NCBI GenBank assembly: GCA_903893865.1 | Contig: CAITNU010000066.1 | Location: 1,094 to 25,093 of the forward strand | Direction of reading: 5' to 3' | Length of the DNA stretch: 24,000 nucleotides | Source: an uncultured Candidatus Micrarchaeota archaeon | GTDB taxonomy: Archaea > Micrarchaeota > Micrarchaeia > Norongarragalinales > Norongarragalinaceae | Shown: one piece after another, positions 3,217 through 8,975 of the stretch | How positions within the stretch are numbered: position 1 is the stretch's first letter | Layout: every line of letters begins with the position of its first letter | Program-made: the position numbers and the translations under genes | The notes under the pieces: model-generated | Seen by the model: the letters and a program-made list of their open reading frames with translations, nothing else | What the model was told of the DNA's origin: nothing | The model's database searches: none

Positions 3217-4524
3217 GTGGTTAAAAGAATTCGTTTGAAAGGCTGCCGCAGCTTCCGCACAGAATTTATTATCATCGCAGTCTTCGCCTTGCTTTGCGCG
3301 AACGTGAGTTTCGCGAACGCTTCGCTTTCAAGCAGCGCGGCGCAAGAGAAAGCAGGCGCAGTTCTCGGCGACGACGCGGGAGACGCGAACTCGCTTTCGC
3401 AACCGATGGAAGTCGGCTCGGATTCGTATTGGGTTTTCTTTTTCTCTATTTACTCGCCGAAACGCCTCCTCGTCGCGGTAAGCGATTCAAGCGGCGCCGT
3501 CGTGACCGACGAAGACAAGCTTTATCGCGTGGGAAACGCAGTCTACGATTACGCGGTAACCCAAGAGTTTTTGAAGGCGCACGGCTGGGGATTCGACGCA
3601 GTCGAACCCCTACTTAGTTCCGCCGCAGGCGCGGTTTCCGACAACCAACGCAAACTCGCCGACTTTTCAGCGCAAACGCAAGGATTGTACCCGAAACTCG
3701 AGCCCTCGTTCTCTAAAATCGACGGAGCGCTCTCGCGCTTAAGCGACCAAGCGCTCGCGGCAGACAGCGCGGCGCGCGACGGAAGCACGCTTGAAACGCA
3801 GTTCGCTTCCGATTATTCTTCTTCTTCGCTCAACGCCGTCTTCAAGCAGTACAACGCTTCACTGCGCTCGCTAGAATCGCTTTTCAACGCGCACGACGCT
3901 TACATCAAGGAAATCAACGACTTCAGTTTCGCGCTCTACAAGGCGAACGTTTCCGCAACCGACGCTTCAAGCATACAAAAGAATTTGGACGTTCTGCGCG
4001 ACGATGGACTCACTGATTTGCGCAACAAGTTCGTCTCACAAAAACCCCAGCTGGAATTCGCGCGGCTGACAGCAAGCAGCGACAAGTGGGTTAACGACAG
4101 CATCGAATCGACGCTTTATCGCATAAACCGCCAAGCCGCCTTAGACGCGGTAAGCGAACTTTACGCTTCCGTCGAAGCTTTGCTTAAAAACGAGGACAAC
4201 GTCATCGCGTGCGGTGTTTCCTCGCAAACAATAGCGCAGTTGCGCAAGGATTGGAACGACGCGCGCTATTTCCTGTCGAAGGAAACCGCCGCGGGATTCG
4301 TGAAAGCGATTGAGAAGGCGGCGCTCGTCAAAACGGAATTCGCCGAGATAAAGCGGACGTACGACTACTGCGGAACAACTCCGACGACGTCCACCACTCC
4401 AAAAACGCAGTCTACGGATTATTCGCCGTTGGTAGCCGCGATTCTTATAATTGCTTTGGCGATAGCGGCTTACGCTTACTATCGAAAGAAGCAGGAAGAA
4501 CTCCAGGATTACGGCGGCCAGTAA
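3217..4524 (+). CDS. Hypothetical type I surface protein (signal peptide, largely helical ectodomain, Thr-rich stalk, C-terminal TM anchor)
   Basis: The track ORF 2821..4524 has a 5' part that overlaps the SPOUT gene on the other strand. Plausible starts are GTG 3217 or TTG 3235, giving VKRIRLKGCRSFRTEFIIIAVFALLCANVSFANA (signal peptide). The C-terminus is TTPTTSTTPKTQSTDYSPLVAAILIIALAIAAYAYYRKKQEE (stalk, TM, basic tail). I recognise no family. Confidence 0.6.
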   Translation: MVKRIRLKGCRSFRTEFIIIAVFALLCANVSFANASLSSSAAQEKAGAVLGDDAGDANSLSQPMEVGSDSYWVFFFSIYSPKRLLVAVSDSSGAVVTDEDKLYRVGNAVYDYAVTQEFLKAHGWGFDAVEPLLSSAAGAVSDNQRKLADFSAQTQGLYPKLEPSFSKIDGALSRLSDQALAADSAARDGSTLETQFASDYSSSSLNAVFKQYNASLRSLESLFNAHDAYIKEINDFSFALYKANVSATDASSIQKNLDVLRDDGLTDLRNKFVSQKPQLEFARLTASSDKWVNDSIESTLYRINRQAALDAVSELYASVEALLKNEDNVIACGVSSQTIAQLRKDWNDARYFLSKETAAGFVKAIEKAALVKTEFAEIKRTYDYCGTTPTTSTTPKTQSTDYSPLVAAILIIALAIAAYAYYRKKQEELQDYGGQ

Positions 4525-4543
4525 ACGCTTGCGGGCGCTTGGA

Positions 4544-4888
4544 ATGAATTTGAACAACCCGTTTTCGATTATAGTTTTTTTCGCCGCCGTTATAATTCTA
4601 TTTTTTATTTCTTCTGGTTGGTTGTTTTCTGACTGCGGTCCTTTTAGTATGATGCAAGACTGCAGACGCGGCCCGAGCCAGCAGGAAACGTGCTTGCAAC
4701 AACTGGCTATGGCAGCAAATTGTTACACCGTCAGCGCTAGCTGGAATCCGCTAGGCGAAGTTTCAGGAGAAGCCGTACCAAAATGCAGGGAAATCAAAAC
4801 CCCTATTGCCGCGTGCTCGAACAATTCTCCTCGAGGAAGTTACTCCACGCAAACCGAAAAATACTGTTGCGGACCGCAGCCAGCTTAG
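4544..4888 (+). CDS. Small Cys-rich secreted/anchored protein, paralog of the pilin at 7317..7637 but with a degenerate leader
   Basis: The start is probably ATG 4544 (MNLNNPFSIIVFFAAVIILFFISSGWLF), though the track gives TTG 4529. Its C-terminal domain shares C-x2-QLA-x3-CY-x4-SWNP(L/V)G, IAAC and a terminal YCCGxxP with ORF 7317..7637. Local GC is lower than in neighbouring genes. Confidence 0.6.
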   Translation: MNLNNPFSIIVFFAAVIILFFISSGWLFSDCGPFSMMQDCRRGPSQQETCLQQLAMAANCYTVSASWNPLGEVSGEAVPKCREIKTPIAACSNNSPRGSYSTQTEKYCCGPQPA

Positions 4889-4897
4889 AAAGCGCCT

Positions 4898-5446
4898 TCA
4901 AATTTTCAGAACATCGTAGCACTTGCGCACCGCAGCGTAATTCTTCGCCGCTACGACTTCGTTGAACCGGCGCTTGATGGCTTTCTCGATGCTCTCAAGC
5001 GTGACGAGCCCGCTCGCCTTCGCGAACGCGCCGAGAATAATAGTGTTCACGAAAGGCGCGCCCAACATTTCTCTAGCTATAGAATAAGCGTCAACCGTCA
5101 AAACACGCGTTCCCTTCGGCGCAGCGAAATCGCCAGCGGCGCGCTTCGTGGCGATGATTGCTATCGTTCCGTTCTTTGTTCCACCAGCGAACGCCGCGTC
5201 CGCCAGCGTCTCGTCGAGAACAAGCAGATAATCAGGCTCGCGCACTTCCTCGTGCAATCGCACGCGCTCGCCTTCTTTCGCGTCAGCGATTCTGCAGAAC
5301 GCCTTCACCGGCGCGCCGCTGCGCTCGGGACCGAACGCTGGAAACGATTGAGCGTTCTTCCCGTCGTTGAACGCTGCGTTCGCAAGAATTTCGCCGCTCG
5401 TCACCGCGCCTTGCCCGCCCCTGCCGTGAAAACGAATTTCAATCAT
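4898..5446 (-). CDS. porG: Pyruvate/2-oxoacid:ferredoxin oxidoreductase gamma subunit
   Basis: [53 protein letters not shown] is the canonical POR/VOR gamma N-terminus. I place the start at ATG 5446 (the homolog-like MIEIRFHG); the track's TTG 5497 adds 17 atypical residues. No alpha, beta or delta subunit genes lie adjacent. Confidence 0.8.
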
Positions 5447-5518
5447 TCTCAAAAACCAAACCAAACCGTCAGAAGTAAATGTTTTCGGCGGCGACAATTT
5501 TAATCCTTGCGTTGTCCG

Positions 5519-7030
5519 TCAAACGACGTCGAAGACGAGTTTGTCGATTTCGATTAACGGCATTTTCCTGATTTGCTCGAACGCGTCCCTAATCTTCTCA
5601 GCGCTGTCGGAGTAAAACGTCGCCACGTGCTGCTTTGCCTTCACTCTCGCGCCTTTCGCGACTTCGAGAACTATTCCCGCTTCCTTGTCGCTCGGCGCGC
5701 CGAGCACTCGCGCAACCCGAGAAAGCGTCTTGTTATCAACGTGCGCGACTACGCCGCTCTCGGCAGCAAACACTTTCTGCGAGTGCTGCGCGAGGCGCAC
5801 GTCGCTCGGCCGAACGCGCGAATCGCCTCCCTGCGCTTCGATGATTTCCCGAAACTTTTCAAGCGCTTTCCCGCTGGCGAGTTGCTGCCTCGCCACTCTA
5901 TAGCCTTCCTGACGCGTTATTCCTTTTACGGCAGCGAGAAGAACGCCGCTCAACGTGCACGCTTTCTCGATCAACGGCGGTTCTTCCTTTCCTTCGAGGA
6001 GTTCAAGCACGCGCCTCGCTTCAAGCGCTGGACCAACGCAATTCATCGCCGGCCCGCTCCCGTCAGTAATAACGCAAGAAACCTCCATGTCCAAATACTT
6101 TCCAAGCGCCTCGAACGCCTTCGCTAGATCGCGCGCTTCATCCACGCTCGCGATTTTCGCGCCGCGGCCGACTGGAATATCGAGCACGACGAACTTCGCG
6201 CCTTCAGCCTTTTTTTTCGCGAGAATGCTCGCGAGGAGAAGCGATTGCGGGTCCAAACGAAGCGGATTGCGGATTTTAATGAGCTTGTCGTCCGCAGCAG
6301 CAATATTCACGGCTCCGCCCCAAATCAAGCAGCCGCCGGTTTTGTTGATAACGCGTTCGGCTTCGCGCACGCTGAGATTCACGGGCGCGAATATTTCCAT
6401 CGCATCCGCGCTCCCGCAAGCGCTGCTAATAGCGCGAGTAGCCGTTTTAGGAATCGTCAACCCCAAGGAAGCGATTATGGGCACGACGAGCATGGACGAG
6501 CGGTCGCCAGCCACGCCGCCTATGCTGTGTTCGGACACGACGGGTTTGCGTTTGCATTTGAGCACTCCGCCGCTCGCGAGAATCGCTTTCGTGAGAAAAA
6601 CCGTTTCCTCCGTATTCAAACCCTTAGTGTAAACGCCGGCGATGAAGGCGGCGCTCTCGGCGGTGCTCAAGTGTTCCTCCATCAAATCGCCGATAATCGC
6701 CTTTATTTCGGCTTCCGCGAGCGTGCCGCCGTCGAGCTTCTTGTGAATGAAATCAAGCGAAGCCGGACGCCGAGCCAAATCCGTCTCGACATTTTGCCCG
6801 TCGCGCGCGCCGAGCGCGCGTGAGACTTCCGCGAACAAACCGATTTCACCTGGCGCGACGAGTTTTTTCGAGTAGTCCACCATTGCGACGACGGTCTTGC
6901 GTCCGACGGTTAAACGCACGCGATCCGAAACGTCGAAATCCAGTTGCCCGCCGTACTTCTCGTTCAACAATGCAACATTCAGCCCGGCTTCCACGTCGAT
7001 TATCTTCGCTTTAAGCTTTACCAAAACCAA
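5519..7030 (-). CDS. deoA: AMP phosphorylase (thymidine phosphorylase family with N-terminal extension)
   Basis: 503 aa, the same length class as archaeal AMP phosphorylase. The N-terminal extension LKAKIIDVEAGLNVALLNE...RVRLTVGRKTV parallels the archaeal enzyme. Core motifs are VSEHSIGGVAGDRSSMLVVPIIASLGLTIPKTATRAISSACGSADAME, CLIWGGAVNIAAADDKL and LASILAKK. The start is TTG. Confidence 0.85.
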   Translation of the reverse strand: MVLVKLKAKIIDVEAGLNVALLNEKYGGQLDFDVSDRVRLTVGRKTVVAMVDYSKKLVAPGEIGLFAEVSRALGARDGQNVETDLARRPASLDFIHKKLDGGTLAEAEIKAIIGDLMEEHLSTAESAAFIAGVYTKGLNTEETVFLTKAILASGGVLKCKRKPVVSEHSIGGVAGDRSSMLVVPIIASLGLTIPKTATRAISSACGSADAMEIFAPVNLSVREAERVINKTGGCLIWGGAVNIAAADDKLIKIRNPLRLDPQSLLLASILAKKKAEGAKFVVLDIPVGRGAKIASVDEARDLAKAFEALGKYLDMEVSCVITDGSGPAMNCVGPALEARRVLELLEGKEEPPLIEKACTLSGVLLAAVKGITRQEGYRVARQQLASGKALEKFREIIEAQGGDSRVRPSDVRLAQHSQKVFAAESGVVAHVDNKTLSRVARVLGAPSDKEAGIVLEVAKGARVKAKQHVATFYSDSAEKIRDAFEQIRKMPLIEIDKLVFDVV

Positions 7031-7098
7031 TCACCCGAGAAACTTACAACCACCAAATCCAGTTCCCGTTTTCGTTTTTCGCTTTCGTTTTTTCGCGT

Positions 7099-7260
7099 TT
7101 GTTTTTGAATAATCCCGCGGCGCTTATTAATTGTTTTTAAATCCCGTGCGAAACACTTCGATAAACCGAATTTTTCTTGTTTTTAACCGTTTTTCCGTTG
7201 TTTTTCAACGCCGCCGCCGTTACTGCCGTTAACCGTCATTACCAGCAACGTTTTTAAATC
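7099..7260. promoter_or_regulatory. Divergent intergenic region with five copies of a TTGTTTTTNA-type motif
   Basis: Copies: ttgtttttga 7099-7108, ttgtttttaa 7131-7140, ttgtttttaa 7177-7186, ttgtttttca 7198-7207 and acgtttttaa 7248-7257. The last copy overlaps a TATA-like TTTTTAAAT (7251-7259), about 58 nt upstream of the pilin ATG. A GGGAGG SD lies at 7301-7306, 10 nt before ATG 7317. Confidence 0.3.
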
Positions 7261-7316
7261 GCCTGCGATTAACCTTTTTTGATAGTTTTAATTGATTTTA
7301 GGGAGGCGGTGCTGTA

Positions 7317-7637
7317 ATGAAGAAAGGACAAGGAACTTTTGAATACATTCTGCTACTCGCAGGAATCCTGCTAATAGTAGTCCTCGCGATAGTCCTGCTT
7401 CGCGGAGGACTGTTCGGAGGCACCTCGAATACCGTTCAAGTTAATTCTTGCAGAAACCAGTTGGCGCAGTCCGGCTGCTACTATGCCAACGGCTCTTGGA
7501 ACCCAGTCGGTGCAGCCGCGCCTTCCATTGCCGCGTGCGCTCCCCTCTATACGGTTCAAGCGGGTAATTGTCCTGCGACTGCTGCAACTGGAGCGGCTAA
7601 TGGCACAGGATATTGCTGCGGTGCGGCACCAGTTTAG
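7317..7637 (+). CDS. Type IV pilin-like protein with class III signal peptide and Cys-rich C-terminal domain (candidate major pilin)
   Basis: MKKG|QGTFEYILLLAGILLIVVLAIVLL matches the archaeal class III signal pattern (basic residue, G/A at -1, Q at +1, E at +5, hydrophobic helix; QxSxExxxL type). It has a strong SD and is followed by a long T-tract. It shares the SWNPxG / IAAC / YCCG domain with 4544..4888. Confidence 0.8.
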   Translation: MKKGQGTFEYILLLAGILLIVVLAIVLLRGGLFGGTSNTVQVNSCRNQLAQSGCYYANGSWNPVGAAAPSIAACAPLYTVQAGNCPATAATGAANGTGYCCGAAPV

Positions 7638-7647
7638 GTAATTCCCG

Positions 7648-7680
7648 TTATTTTTTGTTTTTCTTTTTCCCTTTTCTTTT
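7648..7680 (+). terminator. Oligo-T archaeal-type terminator after the first pilin gene
   Basis: ttattttttgtttttctttttcccttttctttt lies immediately 3' of the stop at 7637. Runs of T are the known archaeal termination signal. Confidence 0.5.
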
Positions 7681-7802
7681 CAAAGCCTAGTCACCAGTGG
7701 GTTTTCCAACCGCTCGAAAAAGCTTTTTTAAGCGCGCGCGAATAGCCTTAATTGCCATTCAAAGTTTTCAAGGCGTTTTCGAAGCATTCCGAGGCGATTG
7801 TT

Positions 7803-7973
7803 TTGGACGACAAGGGACAGGCCGCAGTCGAATACATTCTCTTAGTAGCGTTAGGCTTGTTCCTCATGATAATCGCATTCACGCTCGCGTTCTACGTCAA
7901 ACAATTCACTGATGTAACGCTCAGCGACATTGCCGCGACTCGCAACGAAACCATTTCCATGCTATTCGGCTAA
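7803..7973 (+). CDS. Very small type IV pilin-like protein (class III signal peptide)
   Basis: ...DDKG|QAAVEYILLVALGLFLMIIAFTLAF. The track starts at TTG 7752. I prefer TTG 7803 because GAGG at 7791-7794 sits 8 nt upstream and the leader MDDKG then resembles MKKG of the first pilin. A TATA-like TTTTTTAAG lies at 7724-7732. Confidence 0.65.
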   Translation: MDDKGQAAVEYILLVALGLFLMIIAFTLAFYVKQFTDVTLSDIAATRNETISMLFG

Positions 7974-8003: not shown

Positions 8004-8975
8004 TTGCTTTTAATTCAAACGCGCGCTACTTTTCCTATGCCTGAATCATTAGCCGGTTTAGCTTCGCTCGCGGTTCTCGCGCTCGCCTCGATTGCGGCGG
8101 CGCACCACGACTACCGCTCACGACGCATTCCCAACGCCATTCCTTGGCTCGCGCTCGCCTTCAGCCTCGCTTTCGCGCTGCTCGCTCGCGCGCCGCCGTT
8201 GTATTACGCGCTCGTTCTCGTCGCGTTCGCCTTCGCGCTATTGCTTTATTTCGTCGGCGCTTGGGCCGGGGGGGACGCAAAATTCTTTACCGCGTGCCTT
8301 GCGCTGCTTGCGCTCGCGCGATTCCCAACGCAAATCGCGGACGTGCTTTTGCTGCCTGCAGGCGTTTTCTTGCTCGCCGCGGCGCTTACGGCGCCTTTCG
8401 CGTTGTTTGCGAGGCGCGAGCGCGCGTGGCGAGAACGCCGCGTGCTCGCGGGCGCGTTTGTTGCGAGCGTGAAAGACGCTGTTGGCGGCGCGTTGCTTGC
8501 GGGCTTGGTGCACGCGCTCGGCGTAATCGCGTTTTCTTGGAGCCTTGACGGAATCGTTTCTTCGCTTGCTGCGGGGGCGGCAGGCGTTTTCGCTGCGTCG
8601 TTCGTGTTGCGCGCCGCGTTTTTCGCAGCGGGGCTCTTAAAAGAAAAAATTCCTTTGCAGCAAGTGCGCGAAGGAATCGTGCCGGCGCAAACTCTTTACT
8701 TGGACTCGAACGACGCGCTTCGCTCGTGGGGTTGGCGGGACTCGCTTCGTTCGGCACTGCACGGCGGAAAATCAAGTTTTAAGCCTCGCGGCAGGGTTTT
8801 GTGCGACGCGCGGCGCGCAGCGGGACTCACGGCGCTCGAAGCGCGGGAACTGAAAAAGGTTTTAAAGTCGCGCGGCGTTGGATTCTTGCTCGCGGCAGAT
8901 GCGCTGCCTTTCGCGCCGCAAGTCGGCGCAGCGGCTTTCGCGCTCGCGCTACTGCGTTTCGTTTCGCTGGTTTGA
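8004..8975 (+). CDS. Archaeal type IV prepilin/preflagellin peptidase (A24 aspartic peptidase; FlaK/PibD/EppA-like)
   Basis: The first catalytic Asp context is HHDYRSRRIPNAIPW, after TM1. The second catalytic Asp lies in GAWAGGDAKFF (GxGD type). The C-terminal LPFAPQVGAAAFALALL corresponds to the PFGP-type last helix. The protein is polytopic and Ala/Leu rich. An alternative start is ATG 8037. Confidence 0.85.
   Translation: MLLIQTRATFPMPESLAGLASLAVLALASIAAAHHDYRSRRIPNAIPWLALAFSLAFALLARAPPLYYALVLVAFAFALLLYFVGAWAGGDAKFFTACLALLALARFPTQIADVLLLPAGVFLLAAALTAPFALFARRERAWRERRVLAGAFVASVKDAVGGALLAGLVHALGVIAFSWSLDGIVSSLAAGAAGVFAASFVLRAAFFAAGLLKEKIPLQQVREGIVPAQTLYLDSNDALRSWGWRDSLRSALHGGKSSFKPRGRVLCDARRAAGLTALEARELKKVLKSRGVGFLLAADALPFAPQVGAAAFALALLRFVSLV

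Follow-up and report, generated by a model that had tools for sequence, protein, structure and literature searches.

Two genes about 3 kb apart in one archaeal genome raise the question of why the same small Cys-rich domain should be carried once by a pilin and once by a protein that has no pilin signal. The genes, at 4544..4888 and 7317..7637, lie on the forward strand of a 24,000-nucleotide stretch of DNA (the window; contig CAITNU010000066.1, assembly GCA_903893865.1) from a 1.0-Mb metagenome-assembled genome (MAG) of Candidatus Micrarchaeota (DPANN) that is 78% complete. Both open reading frames (ORFs) are present as first described, when they were taken for a pair of pilin-like proteins, one with a canonical and one with a degenerate pilin leader. 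We consider it probable that the shared region, in the following called the head, is a pilin body domain restricted to one order of Micrarchaeota, that the 7317 product is a pilin, and that the 4544 product and a third copy on contig C50 are membrane-anchored proteins that display the same head for recognition or adhesion.

The shared head domain

A direct BLASTP comparison of the 7317 and 4544 products gives E=6e-8 (single comparison) in an alignment that spans the hydrophobic helices. Because these helices are taken in, a hidden Markov model (HMM) of the head was built from an alignment of 38 pilin homologues that had been cut after the helix, with the 4544 protein and its orthologue excluded. 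The C-terminus of the 4544 product scores 41.9 bits against this independent profile, while 2000 shuffled sequences reach a mean of -1.1, a standard deviation of 2.2 and a maximum of 14.3, so that the similarity described in the original prediction holds. The 4544 product matches a head profile built without it and also retains the core Cys residues. In a heads-only profile (A2), all three heads of the genome score 57-68 bits and the 7317 pilin head 59 bits, these three sequences being part of A2. The two proteins are true paralogues over a Cys-rich domain of ~70 residues.

The pilin head is encoded at 7416..7634 (forward strand; ~73 amino acids, six Cys; alignments A1 and A2) and shows the pattern C..L...CY, G.WN..G and a C-terminal CCG..P; the head of the paralogue lies at 4658..4885 on the same strand. 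At least six conserved Cys had been claimed, and six do align between the two products. Across the family, the consensus reads C-x3-L-x5/6-C-[YF], G-x-W-[ND]-x2-G, two middle Cys, and a C-terminal C-C-G-x2-P, in agreement with the proposed YCCGxxP ending. In the proposed C...CY motif, the spacing is not the same in the two proteins but differs by one residue. The 'conserved IAAC' has to be given up: it stands before the third Cys in the 7317 protein and before the fourth in the 4544 protein, its column is not conserved in the family, and the shared tetrapeptide, being out of register, is best read as a coincidence.

In the AlphaFold2 model of the 4544 head, computed from the head-only alignment (predicted local distance difference test, pLDDT, 89.1; predicted template modelling score, pTM, 0.72), one helix, which in the pilins is the continuation of alpha1, is followed by short strands. 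The number of Cys per head is even in 88 of the 89 distinct sequences (six in 58, four in 20 and eight in 9); the four-Cys heads are without the first Cys of the CC pair (the fifth Cys) and without one of the two middle Cys. Such an even count is what one would expect of an exported domain with all Cys paired outside the cell. The count agrees with the disulfides of the 'disulfide-knotted' head that had been suggested, but a knot goes beyond it.

The suggestion that the head stems from no characterised pilin is upheld by the databases searched. Pfam matches the 7317 pilin at the class III signal only and leaves the head without a match, NCBIfam gives no match for the domain, a profile search of the PDB sequences yields nothing credible (best E=0.14), and Foldseek with the head model retrieves no PDB chain at E<=10. 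Among the Cys-rich, pilin or adhesin domains described in Pfam-A, NCBIfam and the PDB, the head thus has no place, and while type IV pili have been reported generally in Micrarchaeota, nothing on this domain was found in the literature. We infer that the shared C-terminal region is a disulfide-stabilised extracellular domain of ~70 residues that belongs to one order of Micrarchaeota.

The 7317 pilin and the 4544 protein

The 7317 gene (7317..7637, forward strand) encodes a type IV pilin of 106 amino acids with a class III signal, a hydrophobic alpha1-N helix, a Gly-rich hinge and the Cys-rich head. The textbook class III signal ascribed to it is recognised by PF04021 (Class_IIIsignal) over residues 2-26 with 32.4 bits (cut-off 23.7), and cleavage is predicted after Gly4. 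Among its 38 database homologues, the N-terminal 30 residues are >90% conserved, and the AlphaFold2 model of the product has helices at residues 5-28 and 33-52. The expression signals noticed earlier are present as well: a Shine-Dalgarno-like GGGAGG at 7301..7306 (forward strand), 11 nucleotides upstream of the start codon, and a T-rich tract past the stop codon (7638..7690, forward strand) with runs of T7, T5, T5, T4 and T4, which is a candidate archaeal oligo-T terminator. An A24 prepilin peptidase gene (8004..8975, forward strand; PF01478 with 35.9 bits, cut-off 26.5), whose product is the predicted processing enzyme, follows after a gap of 370 nucleotides, and the genome also encodes assembly ATPases and a platform protein. 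By its class III signal and this genomic equipment, the 7317 product is to be regarded as a canonical class III pilin adjoining a prepilin peptidase.

From this family membership, the steps of processing and assembly can be outlined. The neighbouring A24 peptidase would cut the 7317 prepilin after Gly4, and the pilin would be polymerised by ATPase and TadC-like machinery whose genes lie elsewhere in the genome, such that the invariant hydrophobic helix forms the filament core and the Cys-rich head faces outward. The primary role of the head would then be that of the globular body of the type IV pilins of this order. As to the location of the assembly genes, the genome has four T2SSE-family ATPases (PF00437, four matches) and a second A24 peptidase (PF01478) outside the window. 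The genes for these four ATPases and the second peptidase are found on contigs C71, C11, C10, C73 and C47, and on C71 an ATPase, a T2SSF-family platform gene and another small pilin gene stand together.

The pilin locus shows a further peculiarity. In comparison with locus L001 of a sister MAG, the head-coding part of the pilin gene and the terminator tract (7383-7690) differ by 1 base in ~308; the flanks of this tract and the first 66 nucleotides of the pilin gene are 83-93% identical. The near-identity suggests a recent recombination of the head allele, and an assembly artefact seems unlikely.

The 4544 gene (4544..4888, forward strand) encodes a protein of 114 amino acids with an N-terminal hydrophobic helix that has no class III site, a linker with two extra Cys, and the head, and the protein has no Pfam match. 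The linker comprises 22 residues, or 15-22 when the topologies are compared, as against 11 in the 7317 pilin, and its two Cys come in addition to the shared six. The Shine-Dalgarno sequence of the gene is weak and not comparable to that of 7317. It had been noticed that the Q+1/E+5 signature is absent, and this is correct: the N-terminus has neither a basic residue plus Gly/Ala at -2/-1, nor Gln+1, nor Glu+5, PF04021 gives no match at E<=0.1, no in-frame extension of the ORF upstream would supply a class III motif, and the N-terminus of the orthologue P0040 is likewise without one. Because it lacks both the class III motif and the conserved filament-core helix by which archaeal type IV pilins are recognised, the 4544 product should not be called a pilin, though it bears a pilin body. 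To speak of a degenerate pilin leader is likewise misleading. The protein has no class III site, its N-terminus diverges fast between orthologues while pilin N-termini are nearly invariant, and relatives carry the head on unrelated single-pass and 4-5-helix anchors.

Distribution of the head and evolution of the locus

What had been seen as a pair of genes is an order-wide family, of which this genome has exactly three copies: the 7317 pilin, the 4544 gene, and a protein of 220 amino acids with five helices encoded on contig C50 (L049:1075-1737), the Lys-rich loops of which place the head outside. At E<=1e-3, profile A2 retrieves 44 of 1.84 billion cluster representatives. All matches with a source name are from Candidatus Micrarchaeota and 'hypothetical', and some pilin members are annotated in public records as 'class III signal peptide-containing protein'. 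The phylum was sampled with 301 genomes, namely that of the window, 35 others of its order and 265 from other orders; the head was detected in 19 of these 35 genomes, and no genome among the 265 has it.

The family members show four architectures. The first are short pilins of 100-130 amino acids, often in tandem copies. In the second, formed by long class III proteins, a Ser-Pro-rich linker comes after the head and leads to a LamG lectin domain (L020 3832-5268, full head match; L061 1375-3141, partial or variant head) or BNR/sortilin-like repeats (L064 1-1749, partial or variant head). In the third, with ~5 representatives, one hydrophobic N-terminal helix without a class III site precedes the head, examples being P0002, P0040, P0069, P0071, P0073 and two ORFs of genome G001. 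The fourth (~13 representatives) are membrane proteins of 190-240 amino acids with mostly three to five predicted helices and a C-terminal head. Genome G001 has two polytopic head genes in tandem (L055 806-2112) and seven head-profile matches, and the head family is locally expanded in some genomes. A maximum-likelihood tree of 90 heads can only be explained if the anchor type changed two or more times on well-supported branches, and the head appears to have been passed between pilin and non-pilin anchors on at least two occasions. As the genome of the window has the head twice more on ordinary membrane anchors, besides the pilin, the head appears to be a lineage-specific surface module and not a part of the pilus alone.

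The two halves of the 4544 gene have different histories. The sole close relative of its product is P0040 from a sister genome with identical synteny. The neighbouring proteins of the two genomes are 82-94% identical, but the 4544/P0040 pair only 58%, and the nucleotide alignment, with ~87% identity on both flanks, breaks over positions 4515-4742 of the window (L053 2785-2978). In the N-terminal half of the protein, 57 residues can be aligned with the syntenic orthologue, and only 21 of them are shared. For residues 1-66, comprising the helix, the linker and the first head helix, the proportions of synonymous (pS) and non-synonymous (pN) differences are 0.84 and 0.46 (pN/pS 0.55), whereas for residues 67-114 they are 0.29 and 0.05. 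The resulting pN/pS of 0.18 indicates purifying selection on the head half. This pattern of conservation is opposite to that of the pilins, where the first 30 residues are the >90% conserved part across the family. The anchor half may either evolve very fast or have been replaced by recombination; judged by its pS of 0.84, as opposed to 0.29 for the 3' half, the 5' part of the gene resembles a swapped cassette.

The head of the 4544 product finds its closest counterparts, with 35-44% identity, among the pilin heads of neighbouring lineages. The genome's own pilin is only 32-34% identical and ranks 16th-18th. A recent duplication of the adjacent pilin gene was considered as origin of 4544 and rejected, as the own pilin is only 16th-ranked with 32% identity. 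The low rank of the own pilin relative to heads of neighbouring lineages therefore identifies 4544 as an old offshoot of the pilin head and not as a fresh duplicate.

Directly upstream, as already pointed out for a gene adjoining a large surface-anchored protein ~3 kb from the pilin, lies the gene for a predicted surface protein of 435 amino acids (3217..4524, forward strand), whose sequence has an N-terminal signal peptide, a Thr-rich stalk and a C-terminal transmembrane anchor. The ATG of the 4544 gene is found 20 nucleotides past its stop codon. The surface protein has 7 homologues, and its synteny is conserved with or without a head gene downstream. In more distant relatives that keep the whole block, pilus operon included, the slot of 4544 before the oxidoreductase gene is empty (L068, 7257-7269) or holds an ORF of 65 amino acids with a single hydrophobic helix and no head (L069, 9303-9500, and L070). 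Compared for homology to the 4544 N-terminus, the ORF of L069 gives E=1e-4 against P0002 but E=52 against P0040, a similarity that transmembrane composition could explain. The position behind the surface-protein gene is thus one at which small membrane proteins vary.

The gene order of the window begins with a phosphoenolpyruvate/pyruvate dikinase-like gene, a NUDIX gene, a SpoU gene, the surface-protein gene and 4544. These are followed on the opposite strand by genes for an oxidoreductase gamma subunit and an AMP phosphorylase, and then by the 7317 pilin gene. Between the pilin and the A24 peptidase lies a short head-less class III-like ORF of 73 amino acids (7752-7973); L068 has an ORF of 56 amino acids there. 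Beyond the peptidase, proteins with class III signals are encoded in series with membrane proteins between them, and then a form III RuBisCO. On contig C50, an IF-2B-family gene (L049 71-1054) is situated directly upstream of the third head copy and is a candidate for a ribose-1,5-bisphosphate isomerase, a step of AMP salvage.

Proposed display of the head on pili and membranes

Since its N-terminal helix has no class III site, the 4544 product would be exported by the general route and remain unprocessed by the prepilin peptidase. Most likely it is an uncleaved signal-anchored protein in N-in/C-out orientation, which shows the pilin head at the cell surface, and the C50 copy would show the same head from the end of a five-helix membrane protein. 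We propose that the head serves for recognition or adhesion, the pilus presenting it at a distance from the cell and the membrane presenting it close by. That the head also bears lectin modules in modular pilins makes it compatible with display on a filament.

Several observations weigh against this proposal. The 4544-type gene is restricted to this genome and one sister genome and, as its slot is empty or occupied by a helix-only ORF in relatives, it is dispensable. In another genome, the membrane-anchored copies have no link to a pilus locus and are surrounded by housekeeping genes, namely those for GINS, eIF2-alpha and lipoyl synthase. Not 7317 but the short pilin without a head, encoded at 7752-7973, could be the major subunit. 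Finally, it is conceivable that the 4544 N-terminus is a cleavable Sec signal, with a 16-residue core and a cut between I-S-S and G, and that the product is soluble.

The last point can be extended to a secreted mini-protein, the head of which would be freed by signal peptidase I to act as a soluble lectin, competitor or matrix component. Such a reading accounts for a hydrophobic core that can be taken as 16 residues with small residues behind it, and for the even number of Cys expected of an exported protein. In the orthologue P0040, however, the hydrophobic stretch extends over ~20 residues and lacks a small -3/-1 pair, and the related architectures are clearly membrane-anchored, so we regard a soluble product as rather unlikely.

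The conservation of the 4544 helix bears on another explanation, in which the protein belongs to the pilus as a minor or base pilin whose leader has degenerated, either processed by one of the two A24 peptidases in spite of its unusual site or retained uncleaved in the membrane as the terminal subunit that anchors the filament. No other part of the 4544 gene is as poorly conserved as the helix, in contrast to filament-core helices, which hardly vary, and neither class III residues nor a PF04021 match speak for entry into a pilus. Relatives with the whole pilus operon do not have the gene in the slot, and the polytopic anchors of the sister architectures would be unable to enter a filament. We therefore consider a minor pilin improbable, even though one N-terminal hydrophobic helix, linker and head make a pilin-like topology, the pilus operon is 3 kb away, the closest matches to the 4544 head are pilin heads of neighbouring lineages and two A24 peptidases are encoded in the genome. 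That 4544 arose by partial duplication of a pilin gene and is now decaying, or that it is a mere chance match of Cys-rich composition, as its weak Shine-Dalgarno sequence, patchy distribution and long branch in the head tree might indicate, is largely refuted and very hard to reconcile with a score of 41.9 bits where no shuffled sequence exceeds 14.3, the retention of the full ORF and of its six core Cys in both genomes, a pN/pS of 0.18 in the head half and a pLDDT of 89 for the head.

The membrane-anchored display of a pilin head, which we favour, can be placed within the known frame of archaeal type IV pilins. Pilins with a class III signal (PF04021/UPF0333) include EpdE of Methanococcus maripaludis, PilA of Haloferax volcanii, Aap and Ups of Sulfolobus and Iho670 of Ignicoccus. 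The 7317 product resembles them by its short basic leader ending in Gly, Gln+1, Glu+5 and the hydrophobic N-terminal helix, and its gene is located near an A24 prepilin peptidase and a cluster of minor-pilin-like genes. It differs by a head that is a ~70-residue module of a helix plus a small sheet with 2-4 predicted disulfides, and by the existence of the 4544 and C50 paralogues without any class III signal. To our knowledge, the heads of the solved archaeal pilins are larger, beta-rich and poor in Cys.

With the bacterial type IVa pilins (PilA/PilE), the head shares the packing of alpha1-C on a small sheet and an extreme C-terminus tied by Cys, but it has three Cys pairs instead of one and about half the size, and no sequence or fold match between them was detected. 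The C-terminal CCG..P would take the position of the type IVa D-region, and the disulfide-tied C-terminal region of these pilins is the closest functional analogy for the head that we can suggest. Modular type IV pilins are known from Streptococcus sanguinis (PilB and PilC). In the relatives L020, L061 and L064, the head likewise precedes a Ser-Pro linker and a LamG or BNR module, and this order identifies the head as the pilin module of modular pilins. The 7317 and 4544 products are in contrast minimal forms with no added module, and 4544 reverses the modular pattern, being a pilin body without the pilin signal.

DPANN archaea such as Micrarchaeota depend on cell contact, and pili are leading candidates for making it. 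A bolder possibility, which we hold to be improbable at present, is that the head is a self-recognising or host-ligand module and that the 4544 and C50 copies dock the own pili or those of siblings, or bind the same host ligand closely. If this were true, a single domain would serve these episymbionts for capture at a distance as well as for tight contact of cell with cell. The near-identical pilin head tract, in two genomes that are otherwise ~12-15% diverged, and the swapped 5' half of 4544 would then represent a recombination-driven exchange of surface alleles.

The reach of these findings is moderate and not broad, because the family is lineage-restricted. Within this lineage they define the exposed domain of the pilins of one order, which is compact, confidently modelled, rich in Cys and without a relative in the PDB by sequence or Foldseek. 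What is new is an undescribed, lineage-specific pilin head that is reused on non-pilin anchors. With 70 amino acids, the head is a small, expressible target for structure determination and ligand screening, and its filament-borne and membrane-borne forms offer a natural comparison for the attachment of these symbionts.

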